From assembly GCA_963675495.1 (NCBI GenBank), contig OY776215.1, forward strand, positions 288,001-352,000: DNA of 64,000 nucleotides, in the 5' to 3' direction. The DNA comes from an uncultured Methanolobus sp. (GTDB lineage Archaea > Halobacteriota > Methanosarcinia > Methanosarcinales > Methanosarcinaceae). The notes beneath the pieces are model-generated. The model searched no databases and was not told the DNA's origin. It saw nothing but the letters and a program-made list of their open reading frames with translations. Positions 6,366 through 55,116 of this stretch are shown here, piece after piece. The translations under genes were made by a program, and so were the position numbers. The first letter of the stretch is position 1, and the number at the start of each line of letters is the position of its first letter.

Positions 6366-7118
6366 TTATTTTTTAGTCACAGATACTTTTTGTGGAATAA
6401 CACCATCAAAAACAAATTCACCATCTGAATTAGAGTTTAAACTATTGATTTCAAGTCCGGGAACCACTGTATAAATTCGAGGGAAATAGTCTTCCATTAC
6501 ATCTACATTTTCAGGTTCCAGATATTTGTCAGGAAGTGAAACCGGACCAAGATTAAAGGATTCCGGTTCTGCACTCAGCTGATTATTTGTAATGCTGATC
6601 TTTCCTTTGCTATAAATGTTCAAGGTGTCCGGTAGCGGAATAGGTACATCACCTGCAACATCTGAATACAGTTCGGCTTTGAGTTTTTTTATGTCAGCAG
6701 TGCTTGACCCTTCCATGGTTCCATCTGGTGAAACTTTTACCTGTAGATCATCAAACCACCAAAATCCAGGCGCAATTTCATTTAACAAAGCTGTTGACTC
6801 TGCCGCAGTTAAAGTGAATTCTTTCCTTTCATATTCAGAGAATTCAAAATTATAATCATCTATTGATTTATCATCCACATTCTCTTTGTACAGATCTTCT
6901 AATTCTTCGCCAGTCAGACCTTCATATTCTATAACCATACCAGTTTTTTCCAGAGCACTATTATAGTCCTCTTTAGTGTATTCAACTCCTAGATCTTTAG
7001 GTTCAACCACTGAAAAACTTGCATAGGCTCCTGCCAAACCAACTATGATTACCAGAAAAGCCACCGCAAATACATACTTTATTTTTCCTTTTTCGTTGTT
7101 CATTACATCACCAACCAT
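6366..7118 (-). CDS. Hypothetical membrane-anchored acidic protein
   Basis: Single N-terminal hydrophobic helix followed by an acidic soluble domain; start may be MNNEK (7103). Confidence 0.75.
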   Translation of the reverse strand: MVGDVMNNEKGKIKYVFAVAFLVIIVGLAGAYASFSVVEPKDLGVEYTKEDYNSALEKTGMVIEYEGLTGEELEDLYKENVDDKSIDDYNFEFSEYERKEFTLTAAESTALLNEIAPGFWWFDDLQVKVSPDGTMEGSSTADIKKLKAELYSDVAGDVPIPLPDTLNIYSKGKISITNNQLSAEPESFNLGPVSLPDKYLEPENVDVMEDYFPRIYTVVPGLEINSLNSNSDGEFVFDGVIPQKVSVTKK

Positions 7119-7385
7119 TATCCAAATATAATTATAATAATTCTAACTTGATTCTATTTAAATCAATATCCTAACATTAATAGTAAAAAGAAATCTCAAG
7201 CTTTTCGTTTTGTTAGGTTCAAGGAAAAACGCAAGCAAAACTAAGAGCTTATGAAATTATTTCTAGCAAGAATATATACCTTCCTATTTGATTTTGACCT
7301 TGTTTTTTTAAAAATATTATAATCACAAATAATATATCGCATGCATATTATACCTTTAAATTACTGTAAATAGTGTGAATAAGGC

Positions 7386-7883
7386 GTGGTAATGAAAACA
7401 GTAAAAAGAGATTTTGAAAATCTTGTACATCAAGGGATGAAATCCTATGGACTCGATGAACTTTCGTCGAAACTACTTGCAATGCTTTATTCTGAACCCG
7501 ATCCATTAACTTTAGAAGAGCTTACCCTAATGACAGGGTATGGTTTTTCAGCTGTTAGTGCCTCAATGAAATTGCTTAGTGGCGTAACTCTTGTAAATAA
7601 AACACGGAAAGCAGGTTCAAAAAAGTTATACTTTTCAGTTAAAAAAGATATGCTAACGATGACCATTGATGCAATCAAATCCAAAAATGAATTTTTGGTC
7701 GTCCCTGCGCTTAAAGATCTTCCTGCAATGCTTGAAATTTGTGAAAATAGTCAAGCGAAGGAATCAGAAGAATTGCTTAAATTAATCAATCAATATTACC
7801 AGCAAATGCTTGCATTAAATCTGATTTTTAAAAATTCAATTGAACTTACACAAAATATTCAAAAGGAGATAAATAAAGAATGA
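7386..7883 (+). CDS. GbsR/MarR-family transcriptional regulator
   Basis: PLTLEELTLMTGYGFSAVSASMKLL wHTH and GSKKLYF wing; heads a 4-gene operon. Confidence 0.85.
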   Translation: MVMKTVKRDFENLVHQGMKSYGLDELSSKLLAMLYSEPDPLTLEELTLMTGYGFSAVSASMKLLSGVTLVNKTRKAGSKKLYFSVKKDMLTMTIDAIKSKNEFLVVPALKDLPAMLEICENSQAKESEELLKLINQYYQQMLALNLIFKNSIELTQNIQKEINKE

Positions 7884-48706: not shown

Positions 48707-49255
48707 TCACTTTTTATTTTTTCGCTTGATTACAAACAACGCCATGATGAGTGCGCTTATTGCAAGTATACCGGCACCACCATAACCGGCATCCTCAGTC
48801 TTATCGGTAACACTAAAGGTTCCATCCATGGTTGTTGTGATTACTTCAACCCGTTCTATATCATGCACTGAAACCTCCTTAAGTACCAGGGTACTTGATG
48901 AACCAATATCGCCAATCACTTCAAAAGAGACAACTACAATCGGGCCATTGCCACTAATTCCCGATGCATCTGCCAAAGCTATGATGACCTCGCCATCATC
49001 AACCGTATTTGACTCAATATACGCATTTATCCCAAGTTCACCTGTGTCGACACCTGTAGCTTGCAATACCCCTGCATCGTAGCTCATAATAATGTCCATA
49101 CTTCCAACGTTTGTTGCGCTTTCAAGTTCTATTGGAACCTCTACAATGGCCCCATTCTCACCCGTAATGTCACCCACAATAACAGTCGAACTACTCGCTG
49201 ATGCAAGCGATATCAGAAATACCAAACTAACCAACATTAAAGCTTTTCTCATCAT
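48707..49255 (-). CDS. Single-cohesin membrane-anchored protein (anchoring-scaffoldin-like)
   Basis: Signal peptide; cohesin GAIVEVPIEL..ATNVGSMDIIMSYDAGVL...GV..GEL...G.V.IALAD..GISGNG.I..V.F.VIG..G....L.L...DG.F.V; C-terminal TM plus KRKNKK. Confidence 0.88.
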   Translation of the reverse strand: MMRKALMLVSLVFLISLASASSSTVIVGDITGENGAIVEVPIELESATNVGSMDIIMSYDAGVLQATGVDTGELGINAYIESNTVDDGEVIIALADASGISGNGPIVVVSFEVIGDIGSSSTLVLKEVSVHDIERVEVITTTMDGTFSVTDKTEDAGYGGAGILAISALIMALFVIKRKNKK

Positions 49256-49270
49256 TTCACCTCCTTGTTT

Positions 49271-51232
49271 TTATTCTTCTCCTACGACATTCTTCAAAAT
49301 ACTTCTAGCATCAAAAGAGGTCACACTTCCGTCTTCATTTACATCCATTGCAAGGTCTTCTGGAATCTTACCTACAGACATTTGAAGTGCATAAAGTGCA
49401 TCAAGAGCTGTGTAAACCCCATCCCCATCAGCATCGCCTATACCATCTTCCATGCTTATCACATTGAATAGACCATCATAAGTTTGAATCTCCACAGCTT
49501 CATCATCATCCCTGTTAGCTGTGATAGTGGTTATCTCAAGATTCGAAGAGGTTCCTTCTGATCCGATAACACTGAAATTAACATAGGCTATTGATCCGTC
49601 CCCACCAAATCCATTCTTATCAGCCAGACTTACCTTTATAGTCCCGTCCAAAATATTGTAATCGAACAGGGAATTTGTTGTTAAACCACCTTTGATGACC
49701 TCAGTGGCTTCAAGGACAGAGGAATCATAGCTCAGAGACATATCCATGTTTCCGATATTTTCATACATTCCCTTCAGTGTCAATGGTATCTGTACACTGC
49801 TCCCGCTTGATTTACTACGGGATTCAAAGATCAAACCCGAGACTTCAATCGTGGACGGAGGTGTAATATCAACTGTTGAAGGAGGTATGCCATCCCCTGT
49901 TGATTGAACTGTTTCCCCTTCATAGAGAGAATCAATTTCATTCTGACTGAGTGCGTAGTTGTAGATTCTCACTTCATCTATAACACCATCAAAATACGCA
50001 CCAAACGAAGGATTTGAACCAATATTGATTGTATCCCATCCCGGTCCAAGACTGCCTTCTTCTTCATACATGGTGCCATCCACATATAGCTTCACAGTCT
50101 CTGTGTCCTGATCATAGACCACTGCCAAGAATGTCCATTTATCAGTTGTGACAGTATGATATCCCAGAACACCTCCAGAGCCACTAAATGCTGACCAACC
50201 GAGTCCACCGCCACGTGTATCGATATCTATTGTACGATCATATCTTCCATTATCATGTGAAATGACGGTTGCTCTTGAATCACTGTCTGATTTCACCCAG
50301 AGTGCCATAGTTACTTGTGACATTACATCTGGATTTATGTTAATAGGTAAGGAAACATAGTCAGCCTTACCATCAAAATCAAGAGCATTTCCGCTAATTC
50401 CTGAAACAATGGTAGCACCGTTGTTTGTTCCATCATTTCCATTTCCCGAATAGTCCATTGTGTCTCCATCAAATGGATAATACGCTACAAGTCCCGACTC
50501 TGAGCTTGATGAGTCAACAGGCGTTGATGCAATATTTTCAGTAGAGGGCTCTATATCCCCTTCATAGATGGAGTTTATCTCACTCTGGCTGAGTGCATAA
50601 TTGTATATTCTTACCTCATCTATGACACCATCAAAATTTGCACCATACGATGGATTGGAGCCAATATTGATTGCATTCCATCCCGTTCCAAGGCTGCCCT
50701 CTTCTTCATACATGGCATCATCTACATAGAGTTTCACAGTGCCTGCATCCTGATCATAGACCACTGCAAGAAATGTCCATTTATCAGTTGTGACTGACTG
50801 ATGCCCCAGAACTGCTCCTGAACCACTAAATGCTGACCAACCAAGTCCTCCACCGCGTGCATCGATATCTATTGTACGATCATATCCTCCATTATCATGT
50901 GAAATGACCGTACCTCTTGAATCACTGTCTGATTTTACCCAGAGTGCCATAGTTACTTGTGGCATTACATCTGAATTTATATTGATTGGTGCGGAAACAT
51001 AGTCATCCATACCATCAAAATCAAGCGCATTCCCACTCATTCCCGAGACAAAGGTGGCACCATTGTTCGTTCCATCATTTCCATTTCCTGAATGGTCCAT
51101 TGTGTCTCCATCAAATGGATAATATGCCACAAGTCCCGATTCAGATACTGCAGATGCAGTTGTTGCAGATATTAAGACCAATAATAACCCAATAACTACA
51201 AAACTAAATATTTTATTGTAGTAACACTTCAT
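49271..51232 (-). CDS. Secreted LamG-LamG-cohesin-dockerin protein
   Basis: Signal peptide; two LamG/concanavalin-like domains (GLVAYYPFDG..FDGVIDEVRIYNYALS); cohesin (SVQIPLTL..NIGNMDMSLSYDSSVL); C-terminal dockerin with two Ca-binding loops DADGDGVYTALD and DVNEDGSVTSFD. Confidence 0.9.
   Translation of the reverse strand: MKCYYNKIFSFVVIGLLLVLISATTASAVSESGLVAYYPFDGDTMDHSGNGNDGTNNGATFVSGMSGNALDFDGMDDYVSAPININSDVMPQVTMALWVKSDSDSRGTVISHDNGGYDRTIDIDARGGGLGWSAFSGSGAVLGHQSVTTDKWTFLAVVYDQDAGTVKLYVDDAMYEEEGSLGTGWNAINIGSNPSYGANFDGVIDEVRIYNYALSQSEINSIYEGDIEPSTENIASTPVDSSSSESGLVAYYPFDGDTMDYSGNGNDGTNNGATIVSGISGNALDFDGKADYVSLPININPDVMSQVTMALWVKSDSDSRATVISHDNGRYDRTIDIDTRGGGLGWSAFSGSGGVLGYHTVTTDKWTFLAVVYDQDTETVKLYVDGTMYEEEGSLGPGWDTINIGSNPSFGAYFDGVIDEVRIYNYALSQNEIDSLYEGETVQSTGDGIPPSTVDITPPSTIEVSGLIFESRSKSSGSSVQIPLTLKGMYENIGNMDMSLSYDSSVLEATEVIKGGLTTNSLFDYNILDGTIKVSLADKNGFGGDGSIAYVNFSVIGSEGTSSNLEITTITANRDDDEAVEIQTYDGLFNVISMEDGIGDADGDGVYTALDALYALQMSVGKIPEDLAMDVNEDGSVTSFDARSILKNVVGEE
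49915..51148 (-). repeat. Intragenic tandem duplication of the LamG module (period 642 nt / 214 aa)
   Basis: Near-identical DNA blocks, e.g. ACAAGTCCCGA at 50487 and 51129 and long shared runs such as TATCTATTGTACGATCATATC. Confidence 0.9.
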
Positions 51233-51795: not shown

Positions 51796-54700
51796 TTAAC
51801 TCCGTTTCCTGTATACCATATATGCACCTGCGAGAACGATAGATATTCCCCCCATAATCTGCATGATGGCAATAAAACCATTATCATCTGTCTTTTCAGG
51901 AAGAACATAAGCTGCAACAACATCTGTATCTTCTATGGATTTCAGGCTATCTTCTATCAAAATCTCTGTTGCTTTGCTTTCAGATCCAATCGCAAACGGT
52001 GAAAAGCCTGGTGTCTGGCTTTCGAAGTACACATATTCATCATCTTCTTTTGTCACATAGGTAGAAAGAATATTCCATTTATCATCTGAATACCTGTACA
52101 ACTTTACTGTCTCTGCTCCAATATTGTTCTTATTCAACCATGCTTTTTCTACTTTGAAATCGATGAGCAGGTCTTCAACATTATCCGGACTAACAAAACC
52201 AGTCTTACCAACCCAGATATTCATCTGCTGGTAAACTTCCCCGGGTGCATCTAGCTCTGCAAACGATGACCTGTTGCTAAGAATTTCAATGGTTGCCTGT
52301 ATCTTACCAGAATTTTTCAAAGAATCAAATTGAATTGATGATATAGCATTGCCCTCTTCCTTAAACTCGTAATTGATATGGGATCCTGAATTAATGAAGA
52401 TGCTCTGCACCTCTTTTACAAGAATATTCTCATAGGTCTCACCGGTAGCGCCACCCCCACCTCCTCCACCACCGGAAGAAGAAGTGGTAGAAACTGTTGT
52501 AATTGTATCAGGCAGTCCCTTTATGGAATAAGTTGGCTCATCAGCAGCATATTCATGCACGAACACATTTTTTATTTTTAGCATACCTGTCTGATAATGT
52601 GCTGTGAAATGTGACAAACGAAGCGTTCCAGATGTATTTTCAAAGTTTCCAGGAATATTGAATTGCTCCACACCATCTGTACAAATTGCAACATTTGAAT
52701 CACCTAACTTGAATATCATTTGAGCCCAGGCATTTGATGGCATCAAGGAAACATTGGTGTTATGGTAAAGATCATCAGGGGTGCCTGATGTAAAATACCT
52801 CACAAGCGTATTGGTGGGGTCATTCGGTTGGTGTGAATCATAGTACCATCCATCAGTAGCAAGCTTATATGAACCGAAGTAACCGGTACCATAAAACAAA
52901 TCAGCATATGGATAACCACTAACTGGAGAGTAATAGTAATCGGCCTGAACAACTATGGGTCCATCAAAACTAACTGCAGACTCTAAAACATTACCTGTAT
53001 TTATTGGTCCAGCCAAAAGTGTAGACGTATAAATTCCATCTGATACAGAGTGGGAAGCAGCACCATACTCAGTCTTTATCCATTTAGTAGGATCAATGGA
53101 ATTACCTTCAAACATGTCGGCTAATAGCATGACACTGTCAATGTTTGATTCTGATGTTGCGTTCGGGTTTCCATAATACATTTTAATTGTAGAACCATTT
53201 GTTCCATCAATAACAGGAATTTTTACCCAAACTTTTGCAGAAACTGAATCGGTTTTATTTTCAATCCAATATGGTAGTAGAGCATCCCTCTCATCGACAA
53301 ACCTGAGATCATCAAAATCGGGTTGCATCTCTGACTCGTAAAGAATATCGAAATCCATCTGGTAATCTACTAAGGTTCCATCGGAAGAAGGAGATATACT
53401 GATGGTCTTGCTATTACTAAAATTTGAAGCGTTAATTGAATAGTAGTAATATAATGTATTAGCAGTATCCTGACTGGACAATACATTCAATATGCTGTAG
53501 GAATGCCAACCCCAACCTGATTTTTCCAGTTTAACATACCGCCAATGATTTTCAACAATGTACCATGGCGTGACAGAATGTCTGTAGGCATCTCCAGACC
53601 ATGAACATAACGTTGTCCACGTGGAACCATCATTTGACACTTTTATGTATTGAGTTGCTGCTGCAGTACCAAATGCAGCACGCAATTTGTATATATAGAC
53701 TGGTTCACCAAAATCTCTAATGACATAAGTAGACGCATCAGTTTTATAATATGCCTTGGTTCCGGTGCTGTTATCCAGTATATTCATCAAAGATCCTTCG
53801 TTAGGAGTTCTACTGGCAGTTATTGTACCGCCGGTGTCTAAACCTTCAATGAGATCAAATATAGAGAGAAGATCACTAACTGCTTCTTCATCTTCTGCAC
53901 ATTCGTAGATTATCGTATCACCATCATTCAGATCAAGCTTGAGTGTGACCACAGAGCTGTCAACATCATCACGATATTGAGGAATCTCATGCGTAAAATT
54001 TGAATCATAGTAGTAATGCAGATATTCGTATCCAGTAGCGTTAACAGGCAGGGTTCTGTAATTTAGTGTGTACTGGAAACCAGTTAGTGCACCATAAATA
54101 CCTGAATTGGAGATGACAATTGTCCTAACTGAACTTGGAGCAGCACAAATATTGGGTATTGAATAAGCAGGTTCATTCTTGGCATCTTTTTTCACATATA
54201 CCCAATCAGTCCATACCTTGGAATCATGATCAAAAATCGTATCCATTCTAGTATTAATTCCAATATTTAATGGTATTGAAGATACATTTTTCCCAGTAGA
54301 ATATACATCTCCATTTTCAAGAAAAGCGGATACATTTGAATCCCAAATAATATGCCAATTGTAGTATTCCTCCTGCAGTCCTGCGATATTACCCCAATGT
54401 TCACGTGTTGCTGATCCATTATTTTTTGCAAGAGTAGAATACACATCAGTTCTGTAATGATGAATAGCAGACATACTAGACAATGAAGGATTCATAAATC
54501 CAATATAACTATAACCCCATTCTTGATTTTTCAGACGTGATCTAAAAACAACTGAGTGAGGAATAGACGAATTAATCACCTGAGTAGAAAATACTTCAAC
54601 AGGGTTATCTAAATACAATACACCATTGGACACTGAATAAGTTCCAGTGCTTTGAAGATTTACAGACCATTTAGATGTATTTAGTGAAGTACCTTCAAAA

Positions 54701-55116
54701 TCATCAAAGAACTCAAATACTTCATCACCATTTGATTGAGGTTCAGCTTTAGAATTACCATAGTACATCTTCACAGTTGCACCGTTTGTCCCGTCGATCT
54801 CAGGTATCTTTACCCAGACCTTAGCAGAAATGAAATCTGTCTTAGATTCAATCCAGTATGGAAGTAGAGTTCCATTTTCACTAGCAAACCTCAGGTCATC
54901 AAAATCAGACTGCATTTCAGATTCATAGTTAATATCGAATATCATTTGATAATCTATTAGGGTTCCATCTGAAGATGGTGAAATATCAATCGTTTTAGAC
55001 TCGCTGAAATCAAACATCACATTCGTTTCATCTGCGCTTACTGGCGTAATCAAACCAAGCGTCAAGATTAAAAAAGCGATGCCTACAACACATATCCTGA
55101 AATGATCATTTTTCAT
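51796..55116 (-). CDS. Large cell-surface protein: 2x DUF2341 modules, discoidin-like insert, poly-Gly linker, PGF-pre-PGF domain, C-terminal TM
   Basis: FDDLRF...LPYWIE...VWVKIP...MYYGN twice; VSNDGSTW...RYVKL; SSSGGGGGGGG; YFESQTPGFSPFAIG; TM plus RKRS. Confidence 0.9.
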   Translation of the reverse strand: MKNDHFRICVVGIAFLILTLGLITPVSADETNVMFDFSESKTIDISPSSDGTLIDYQMIFDINYESEMQSDFDDLRFASENGTLLPYWIESKTDFISAKVWVKIPEIDGTNGATVKMYYGNSKAEPQSNGDEVFEFFDDFEGTSLNTSKWSVNLQSTGTYSVSNGVLYLDNPVEVFSTQVINSSIPHSVVFRSRLKNQEWGYSYIGFMNPSLSSMSAIHHYRTDVYSTLAKNNGSATREHWGNIAGLQEEYYNWHIIWDSNVSAFLENGDVYSTGKNVSSIPLNIGINTRMDTIFDHDSKVWTDWVYVKKDAKNEPAYSIPNICAAPSSVRTIVISNSGIYGALTGFQYTLNYRTLPVNATGYEYLHYYYDSNFTHEIPQYRDDVDSSVVTLKLDLNDGDTIIYECAEDEEAVSDLLSIFDLIEGLDTGGTITASRTPNEGSLMNILDNSTGTKAYYKTDASTYVIRDFGEPVYIYKLRAAFGTAAATQYIKVSNDGSTWTTLCSWSGDAYRHSVTPWYIVENHWRYVKLEKSGWGWHSYSILNVLSSQDTANTLYYYYSINASNFSNSKTISISPSSDGTLVDYQMDFDILYESEMQPDFDDLRFVDERDALLPYWIENKTDSVSAKVWVKIPVIDGTNGSTIKMYYGNPNATSESNIDSVMLLADMFEGNSIDPTKWIKTEYGAASHSVSDGIYTSTLLAGPINTGNVLESAVSFDGPIVVQADYYYSPVSGYPYADLFYGTGYFGSYKLATDGWYYDSHQPNDPTNTLVRYFTSGTPDDLYHNTNVSLMPSNAWAQMIFKLGDSNVAICTDGVEQFNIPGNFENTSGTLRLSHFTAHYQTGMLKIKNVFVHEYAADEPTYSIKGLPDTITTVSTTSSSGGGGGGGGATGETYENILVKEVQSIFINSGSHINYEFKEEGNAISSIQFDSLKNSGKIQATIEILSNRSSFAELDAPGEVYQQMNIWVGKTGFVSPDNVEDLLIDFKVEKAWLNKNNIGAETVKLYRYSDDKWNILSTYVTKEDDEYVYFESQTPGFSPFAIGSESKATEILIEDSLKSIEDTDVVAAYVLPEKTDDNGFIAIMQIMGGISIVLAGAYMVYRKRS

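Follow-up and report, generated by a model that had tools for sequence, protein, structure and literature searches.

An archaeal cohesin-dockerin gene pair with a LamG head protein and a likely membrane anchor, read as a reduced copy of a conserved cassette

We analyzed a 64,000-nucleotide (nt) stretch of DNA from an uncultured Methanolobus sp. (contig OY776215.1 of assembly GCA_963675495.1, positions 288,001 to 352,000; hereafter the window), which carries two adjacent genes on its minus strand, gene A (49271..51232) and gene B (48707..49255). On balance we think that this A-B pair is a reduced two-gene copy of a conserved archaeal cassette, non-cellulosomal in character, in which B tethers A and the cohesin of A provides a second docking site. 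In the mechanism that we infer from the domains, folds, family membership, gene linkage and class census reported below, in which every binding step and any formation of chains is conjectural, A and B would both be exported. B would remain membrane-bound, holding its cohesin some 9 residues clear of the bilayer, and the C-terminal Ca-binding dockerin of A would, as homology and gene linkage suggest, dock on this cohesin. The cell surface would in this way gain a tethered pair of lectin-like LamG domains joined by flexible linkers. Because the cohesin of A would offer a further docking site for the same dockerin class, A would be an adaptor. In relatives, this site could accept the dockerin of a third protein, C, or that of an A-type protein bearing another head, and the resulting chains would be B-A-C or mixed; C has no cohesin and could only end a chain, as cargo or terminator. 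In this genome the site would be either empty or filled by another A, giving short B-(A)n chains, because C is missing and the dockerin of A is the sole member of its class. The first-pass annotation of the window had pictured a head-to-tail string of lectin heads; the backbone of such a chain would instead be a row of cohesin-dockerin tails, with the LamG pairs as side arms on 28-residue flexible linkers. We regard the role of B as anchor for A as likely, judging from sequence relationships, and a self-extending chain in this genome as possible.

Gene A encodes a protein of 653 amino acids (aa) with the order signal peptide-LamG-LamG-cohesin-dockerin and no membrane anchor, as read from its open reading frame (ORF) and Pfam matches. 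By eye, its N terminus (aa 1-28, 51149..51232; this and the following features lie on the minus strand) starts with a basic n-region (MKCYYNK), continues as a hydrophobic core and closes with ASA, after which the mature part follows; the C terminus lacks any hydrophobic stretch. Laminin_G_3 (PF13385) matches the protein in two stretches (E 4.1e-47). The first LamG domain spans about aa 34-224 (50561..51133) and is modeled as a β-sandwich with a predicted local distance difference test (pLDDT) score of ~88; the second spans about aa 248-437 (49922..50491), with aa 287-433 as the best PF13385 stretch. A flexible linker rich in Pro, Ser and Thr (aa 438-465, 49838..49921), with pLDDT <50 in the head model and the tail model alike, joins the heads to a tail that is made up of the cohesin (aa 466-593, 49454..49837), a short linker, MEDGIG (aa 594-599, 49436..49453), and the dockerin (aa 600-650, 49283..49435). 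The dockerin holds two Ca-loop/helix repeats, whose 12-residue loops, DADGDGVYTALD and DVNEDGSVTSFD, can be read directly in the sequence; both fit dockerin type I, with D/N at loop positions 1, 3 and 5 and D at position 12, and are predicted to bind Ca. The hidden Markov model (HMM) check that had been proposed for the domains succeeded for both cohesins, that of A matching PF00963 at E 1.3e-14 (55.0 bits against a curated cut-off of 24.1), and gave a mixed result for the dockerin, which scores 20.9 bits against Dockerin_1 (PF00404) in the whole-protein scan, under the cut-off of 22.9, and 24.1 bits in the genome scan. Orthologues of gene A score 17.7-24.2 bits against PF00404, and this family appears in the precomputed annotation of only 18 of the 79 representatives of the tail family described below; annotation therefore overlooks most members of this dockerin class.

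Gene B encodes 182 aa with the order signal peptide-cohesin-transmembrane (TM) helix-basic tail, the signal peptide and the helix being identified by eye. The cohesin (aa 24-149, 48809..49186) matches PF00963 at E 2.2e-12 (47.8 bits, cut-off 24.1) and is followed by the stalk TDKTEDAGY (aa 150-158, 48782..48808), an 18-residue hydrophobic helix (aa 159-176) and the cytoplasmic tail KRKNKK (aa 177-182; helix and tail together 48710..48781). The same layout of TM helix and basic tail recurs in the B-like genes of relatives. Because only the 9 residues of the stalk precede the membrane helix, the B cohesin is predicted to sit at the membrane surface. The two genes are separated by a 15-nt spacer, between the TAA stop codon of A (49271-49273) and the ATG of B (49253-49255), that contains a GGAGG ribosome-binding site (49260-49264), so that the coordinates, domain order, 15-nt gap and GGAGG of the first-pass annotation all stand. 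The Ala-Gly-Tyr at the end of the stalk (window 48782-48790, minus strand), directly before the TM helix, is kept in the B orthologues of the genus (L039-L042 and L110-L112) and occupies the place where a PGF-type sorting motif would sit. With AGY instead of PGF and no match to an NCBIfam sorting signal at E ≤ 0.1, B was not recognized as a PGF-CTERM/archaeosortase substrate; a loose pattern finds 25 PGF-type C termini elsewhere in the genome. AGY before a TM helix was also considered as a genome-wide sorting signal and rejected, as only two ORFs fit a loose pattern.

The cohesins of A and B share 40% identity over 118 aa (E 4e-21) and, of the 10 cohesin modules in the genome, each finds the other as its best match, the next best being at E 5e-5, which bears out their proposed likeness. 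The aspartate of an NMD motif is conserved in A and B cohesins alike; among A cohesins this motif, in strand 3, is near-invariant and the mean frequency of the top residue is 0.76. In a tree of 81 unique cohesins, the 31 B-type sequences group together as one clade (support 0.95), separate from the 50 A-type sequences and on branches longer than theirs; the A/B duplication is therefore old, with the pair kept together since. On these sequence comparisons, the A cohesin is an ancient paralogue of the B cohesin and the more conserved of the two. Both find their best match in the Protein Data Bank in 2xdh, a non-cellulosomal cohesin of Archaeoglobus fulgidus (E 1.8e-19 for A and 4e-14 for B), as the suggested link to the A. 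fulgidus pair had implied.

In that pair the dockerin of ORF2375 (aa 432-506) and the cohesin of ORF2376 (aa 29-162) bind each other strongly and specifically, and the interaction was used to attach proteins to Escherichia coli (Ko 2021, PMC9705933, which cites Voronov-Goldman 2011 and Haimovitz 2008); the pair also served as a tool in Kahn 2019. As here, one protein carries a cohesin and a C-terminal dockerin, the neighboring gene encodes a lone cohesin, there is no cellulose context, and both of our cohesins are closest to 2xdh. The present pair differs in its two-LamG head, its mesophilic methanogen lineage and an identity of ~37% to 2xdh. From the sequences, the link to the A. fulgidus pair is one of homology and not of mere resemblance. 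Haimovitz is also said to have described, in 2008, an archaeal dockerin that binds two complementary cohesins, which would favor the homopolymer considered below.

The assignment of B as anchor rests on this demonstrated homologous pair, on strict A-B adjacency and on the occurrence of dockerin-only cargo genes beside B-type genes. Of 24 other genomes of the genus, 4 carry orthologues of B (47-83% identity), and every one of these genes immediately follows a gene of A type. The synteny survey proposed in the first-pass annotation showed that the adjacency is kept and that the usual cassette adds a third gene, C: A is directly followed by B in 11 of 11 cassettes from nine genomes, and C is present in 9 of the 11. 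The gene orders are A-B in the genome under study; A-B followed by a transposase-like ORF at locus 1 of G001 and A-A-B-C at its locus 2; A-B-C in G020, G003 and G138; A-B-C in G023 with B truncated before the TM helix; A-A-B-C and A-B-C-A at loci 1 and 2 of G077; and A-B-B-C in G153 and G147. Gene B is intact in the genome under study and in the C-less copy of G001, and the two are 83% identical. The B gene of G023 (L043, 3909-4340, minus strand) ends after the cohesin at 141-143 aa with no membrane helix and may be a decayed anchor. In the orthologous A-B copy of G001 (L039), the next ORF (6930-7874, plus strand, 314 aa) resembles, by eye, an insertion-sequence transposase. Together with the patchy spread of the tail, which a survey of 151 genomes of the order found at E ≤ 1e-20 in 8 genomes and in 3 of 23 genera, this ORF hints that the cassette moves between genomes.

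A scan of metagenomes with the tail alignment as query yielded 64 loci, whose genes were annotated at E ≤ 1e-3 with HMMs built from these families; a scan of genome contigs with the single tail sequence gave two loci only. There were 54 A-type genes complete at the 3' end, 41 of them with at least 600 nt downstream. A B-type gene lies within 200 nt downstream of 27 of these 41, and another A-type or cohesin gene does so in a further 4. In five loci (L094, L098, L100, L105 and L107) a dockerin-only cargo gene is directly followed by a B-type gene, and dockerin-to-B logic therefore exists without an A cohesin. A clear C follows 7 of the 28 B-type genes that have at least 700 nt downstream. Some metagenome B-type cohesins lack a C-terminal membrane helix (L060 2054-2557, L063 3006-3530, L064 781-1305, L067 5530-5850, L097 5716-6381, L098 2297-2776 and L103 729-1190) and end in a common Pro-x-(Ile/Val)-x-Phe-(Arg/Lys)-like motif, a sequence feature that may mark a different anchoring mode.

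Gene C encodes a secreted protein without a cohesin and of very constant length, mostly 213 aa among 67 relatives, annotated in the sources as hypothetical or as "dockerin type I domain-containing." Its dockerin is inserted in the middle of the chain, where it splits a small domain of unknown family in two. At 48-52% identity to the A dockerin, and with both helices alike, it belongs to the same class. A search of the ESM Atlas with protein C gave no usable match. The cassette copies lie at L040 3111-3770(-), L041 7000-7641(+), L042 2950-3603(-), L043 3123-3770(-), L110 3758-4399(-), L111 7547-8188(-), L112 6080-6721(+), L113 2792-3463(-) and L114 5988-6659(+). Judged by these sequences, in relatives A looks like an adaptor and C like cargo or a chain terminator. 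A genome-wide search found no dockerin-bearing C in the genome under study, only dockerin-less paralogues, three of which are secreted proteins of 153-234 aa (G000:C1:785972-786433(+), 1180941-1181414(-) and 408936-409640(-)).

The tail of A proved to be a conserved unit that is found under many heads. A search with residues 455-653 of A at E ≤ 1e-5 recovered 79 cluster representatives including A itself, 66 of which span at least 90% of the tail; over its 190 residues, most of the 78 others are 57-90% identical. Their source names include Methanolobus, Methanococcoides, Methanomethylovorans, Candidatus Syntrophoarchaeum, ANME-1 (a group of anaerobic methanotrophic archaea, ANME), Geoglobus and one Chloroflexota. 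The heads vary between LamG, AbfB-like, F5/8 type C, PD40, several other accessions and nothing known, and even in the LamG-headed relatives P0011, P0014 and P0029 the head is 30% identical versus 66-70% for the tail. The distance from the last cohesin strand to the first Ca loop is nearly constant: among 68 sequences it equals that of A in 49, is one residue longer in 15, two longer in 3 and five shorter in 1.

The proposed genome-wide search for dockerins found five dockerin proteins, namely A, a disaggregatase-related protein, a 976-aa β-helix protein, a CAP-domain protein and a protein of 1162 aa, with A alone in its class. The A dockerin is 21-27% identical to the other four, and a class-specific dockerin HMM, searched against the six-frame translation at E ≤ 10, had gene A as its sole match. 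The cohesin modules, about 10 in four sequence classes with at most two per protein, include A (218 bits) and B (89 bits) as clear matches to the class cohesin HMM, with one other protein matching weakly (27 bits). From this census and the absence of C, it follows that the class is represented in this genome by two cohesins and a single dockerin. The other four dockerins go with other cohesin classes by adjacency.

This inventory bears on an alternative in which A forms an open-ended Ca-dependent homopolymer, its cohesin binding the dockerin of the next A and B priming a long adhesive fiber. With two cohesins and one dockerin of the class, the A cohesin has no other same-class ligand in the genome, and the strong constraint on this cohesin, with its near-invariant NMD, also speaks for such a polymer, as may, by analogy with short-linker diabodies, the near-fixed 6-residue linker, which could disfavor closure in cis. 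The idea has a precedent in Amy4 of Ruminococcus bromii, whose cohesin binds its own dockerin; multimers of >250 kDa were seen and multimerization was proposed, and the paper states that such pairs "presumably" multimerize in other systems, citing the A. fulgidus papers (Ze 2015, PMC4611034). Self-polymerization, which the first-pass annotation had inferred, is thus an idea already published. The Amy4 dockerin also binds a cell-surface anchoring cohesin protein (Ze 2015, PMC4611034), so that the Amy4/Sca2 amylosome, like A-B, combines a secreted cohesin-plus-dockerin protein with an anchoring cohesin on the cell. The amylosome, however, is bacterial, with a sortase-linked anchor where B has a TM helix and with a GH13 amylase head; the Amy4 cohesin also takes the dockerins of several other enzymes, and its sequence kinship to A extends to the module families only.

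Against a homopolymer stands the presence of C, with its same-class dockerin and no cohesin, in 9 of 11 cassettes, which means that the A cohesin would normally have a heterologous ligand. No support was obtained for tail-tail binding: a complex prediction with two tail copies scored 0.00 (mark 0.42) with controls not run, a result that counts neither for nor against binding. An S-layer is expected for this order, and the 9-residue stalk of B puts the origin of any chain at the membrane, beneath that layer. The closeness of the B cohesin to the membrane likewise argues against the pilus-like external fiber that had been envisaged earlier. The short stalk, the C of the normal system and the rigid tail model presented next, which may mean closure in cis, all speak against a long external fiber, and we consider an open-ended homopolymer doubtful, at perhaps one chance in a handful or slightly better.

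We modeled the tail with AlphaFold2 from the last 199 residues of A and a 68-row alignment. The model (pLDDT 93, with the five models spanning 92.0-93.0; predicted template-modeling (pTM) score 0.85) consists of a cohesin sandwich, the 6-residue linker with pLDDT 94 and a two-helix dockerin (helices at 155-165 and 185-196 of the tail). The confident linker and pTM mean that the cohesin and dockerin of A are modeled in one fixed arrangement. In a Foldseek search with the tail, the top 30 matches were all cohesins, 2xdh being first with a TMt of 0.87 and ~37% identity in the fold alignment; the top matches cover the cohesin part only (130-149 columns), and the fold evidence therefore concerns the A cohesin, for which the model and the Foldseek matches give the nine-stranded jelly-roll cohesin fold.

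The single confident arrangement of the model would also suit a tail closed in cis, in which the dockerin of A occupies its own cohesin and A is a monomer, with B binding C in relatives and nothing here. The near-invariant length of the linker fits such a fixed intramolecular geometry. B would then lack a ligand both here and in the C-less copy of G001, yet it is intact in each. The dockerin-only cargo genes paired with B show the class working in trans, and for the A. fulgidus pair, binding in trans has been seen with the ORF2375 dockerin on its own and the ORF2376 cohesin (Ko 2021, PMC9705933). Predictions of monomers, moreover, tend to place intermolecular co-evolving contacts in cis, and from this we would expect the model not to discriminate between the two. 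Closure in cis thus appears unlikely to us, a little more so than the homopolymer.

A further possibility takes the constant linker as too short for cis closure, so that the tail would be forced to act in trans, B serving as primer, A-type subunits forming the chain and C acting as a terminator that sets its length. This reading, drawn by analogy with short-linker diabodies, we hold to be rather unlikely, marginally below even cis closure. If true, LamG, AbfB-like, F5/8-C, PD40 and other heads would be interchangeable along membrane-primed filaments, the locus in the window would be a terminator-less version producing homotypic LamG bottle-brush chains, and the whole would amount to a modular surface fiber made without pilins or sortase.

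The cohesin of A might otherwise act across classes and recruit the disaggregatase-related, β-helix, CAP-domain or 1162-aa dockerin protein. That four further dockerin proteins exist in the genome, and that cross-reactivity is seen in some cohesin-dockerin systems, as tabulated for R. bromii (Ze 2015, PMC4611034), would allow for this. The low identity of those dockerins to that of A and their failure to match the class HMM stand against it, as does the existence, for each, of a better candidate partner by adjacency or class, such as the two-cohesin gene that follows the 1162-aa gene or a class-III cohesin-like module in the 976-aa protein, and we judge recruitment across classes improbable. 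The disaggregatase-related protein (G000:C1:648762-653138(+), 1458 aa) combines three PF06848 matches and PF08480 with PKD domains, Ig-like domains and, at the C terminus, a dockerin from a different class, and from this composition it appears to be an envelope-remodeling enzyme displayed via a cohesin-dockerin link. The 976-aa β-helix protein (G000:C1:683688-686618(+)) carries a dockerin and a cohesin-like module, undetected by Pfam at E ≤ 0.01, that matches three small anchored cohesins of the genome by BLAST at E 1e-14 to 2e-16; by sequence it is a second cohesin-plus-dockerin protein of the genome, of a different class. At G000:C1:2759125-2764468(+), the 1162-aa protein, which has no Pfam family and a C-terminal dockerin, is followed after 25 nt by a 609-aa two-cohesin protein.

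The heads of A were modeled with AlphaFold2 from aa 28-455 and a 21-row alignment. Two well-folded β-sandwiches were obtained, with disordered linkers (pLDDT <50) at head residues 199-217 and 415-428 and a pTM of 0.51, so that in the model the LamG pair behaves like beads on a string. The fold matches are of the generic LamG/ConA type (laminin LG, neurexin LNS and lectin-like domains of various proteins). The best for a single domain is that of LamG domain 2 to the sugar-binding domain 4 of the arabinanase AbnA (5hon_A, TMt 0.74, 25% identity). No catalytic family was found in the head of gene A, and we infer that the LamG heads probably bind glycan.

Cohesins and dockerins are the assembly modules of cellulosomes, LamG-type folds occur in glycanases, and the nearest single-domain match belongs to a GH43 enzyme, all of which might suggest a cellulosome-like complex for polysaccharide degradation. 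As the first-pass annotation had stated for the vicinity, glycoside hydrolase (GH) families are absent from the 9 flanking ORFs scanned and from the upstream 1106-aa gene; in A, B, these neighbors and the four other dockerin proteins, there is no GH catalytic family and no carbohydrate-binding module (CBM) family. The HMM census of the genome found no multi-cohesin scaffoldin of A's class, and the closest named relatives are, by source names, methylotrophic methanogens. We regard a degradative complex of this kind as exceedingly improbable. The adaptor and anchoring scaffoldins of cellulosomes (ScaA and ScaB types) do share with the cassette an order from anchor cohesin through adaptor to dockerin cargo, comparable to B, A and C in relatives. 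The cassette differs from them in having single cohesins with no arrays, no enzymes, no CBM3, no S-layer homology domain or sortase anchoring, and a short fixed cohesin-dockerin linker in A.

The 1106-aa product of the upstream neighbor (window 51796-55116, minus strand) is a surface protein in which two DUF2341 domains and a weak match to F5/8 type C are combined with a PGF-pre-PGF domain that precedes the C-terminal helix. This gene is missing from the orthologous site of G001; there gene A and the DEAD-box helicase gene are 1.6 kb apart, and the neighbor is therefore no fixed partner of the cassette.

Several points weigh against our reading of the pair as a reduced cassette with B tethering A. 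The Pfam dockerin score of gene A is borderline. No confident prediction of binding was obtained, and the fixed arrangement in the tail model may mean that the dockerin occupies its own cohesin in cis. Among the 41 metagenome A-type genes, 10 have neither a B-type nor an A-type gene within 200 nt; three of these have an A-type or cohesin gene 1.5-1.9 kb further on, two have a B-type gene beyond 200 nt and in five nothing was detected. The cassette is dispensable, as its patchy spread implies. Where C is present, the protein held by B might be C instead of A, and the C-less copy studied here could be a decaying remnant. Finally, the public sequencing runs comprise seven DNA or unknown rows from four studies and no RNA, and no expression data were found.

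Many cohesin and dockerin proteins have been noted in ANME and other Methanosarcinales, and attachment of proteins to the envelope or cell-cell contact was proposed (Chadwick 2022, PMC9012536; Timmers 2017, PMC5244752); in the available text of these surveys, the function of such non-cellulosomal modules is still given as unknown. The A-B-C cassette and the fixed-linker tail are not described in that text, supplementary lists aside. Nor did a literature search, with Peer 2009 and the survey supplements outside its scope, find any account of the cassette of three genes, of a tail with a fixed linker beneath exchangeable heads, of the C protein or of a Methanolobus-like pair; because those sources were not covered, we make no claim of priority for the cassette. 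The module pair, the anchoring logic and the idea of self-recognition are already in print, and any discovery of principle is therefore modest.

Taken together, these data suggest that the pair belongs to a conserved cassette of an anchor, an adaptor with a variable binding head and a small dockerin protein, which is scattered, by source names, through Methanosarcinales, Syntrophoarchaeum, ANME-1 and Archaeoglobaceae. Its occurrence in cultured methylotrophic methanogens, likewise judged by source names, should make it more accessible to tests than it is in ANME consortia, which are uncultured. Were binding confirmed, the cassette would provide a set of orthogonal mesophilic cohesin-dockerin pairs and a concrete model for how lectin-like proteins are hung on the archaeal membrane.

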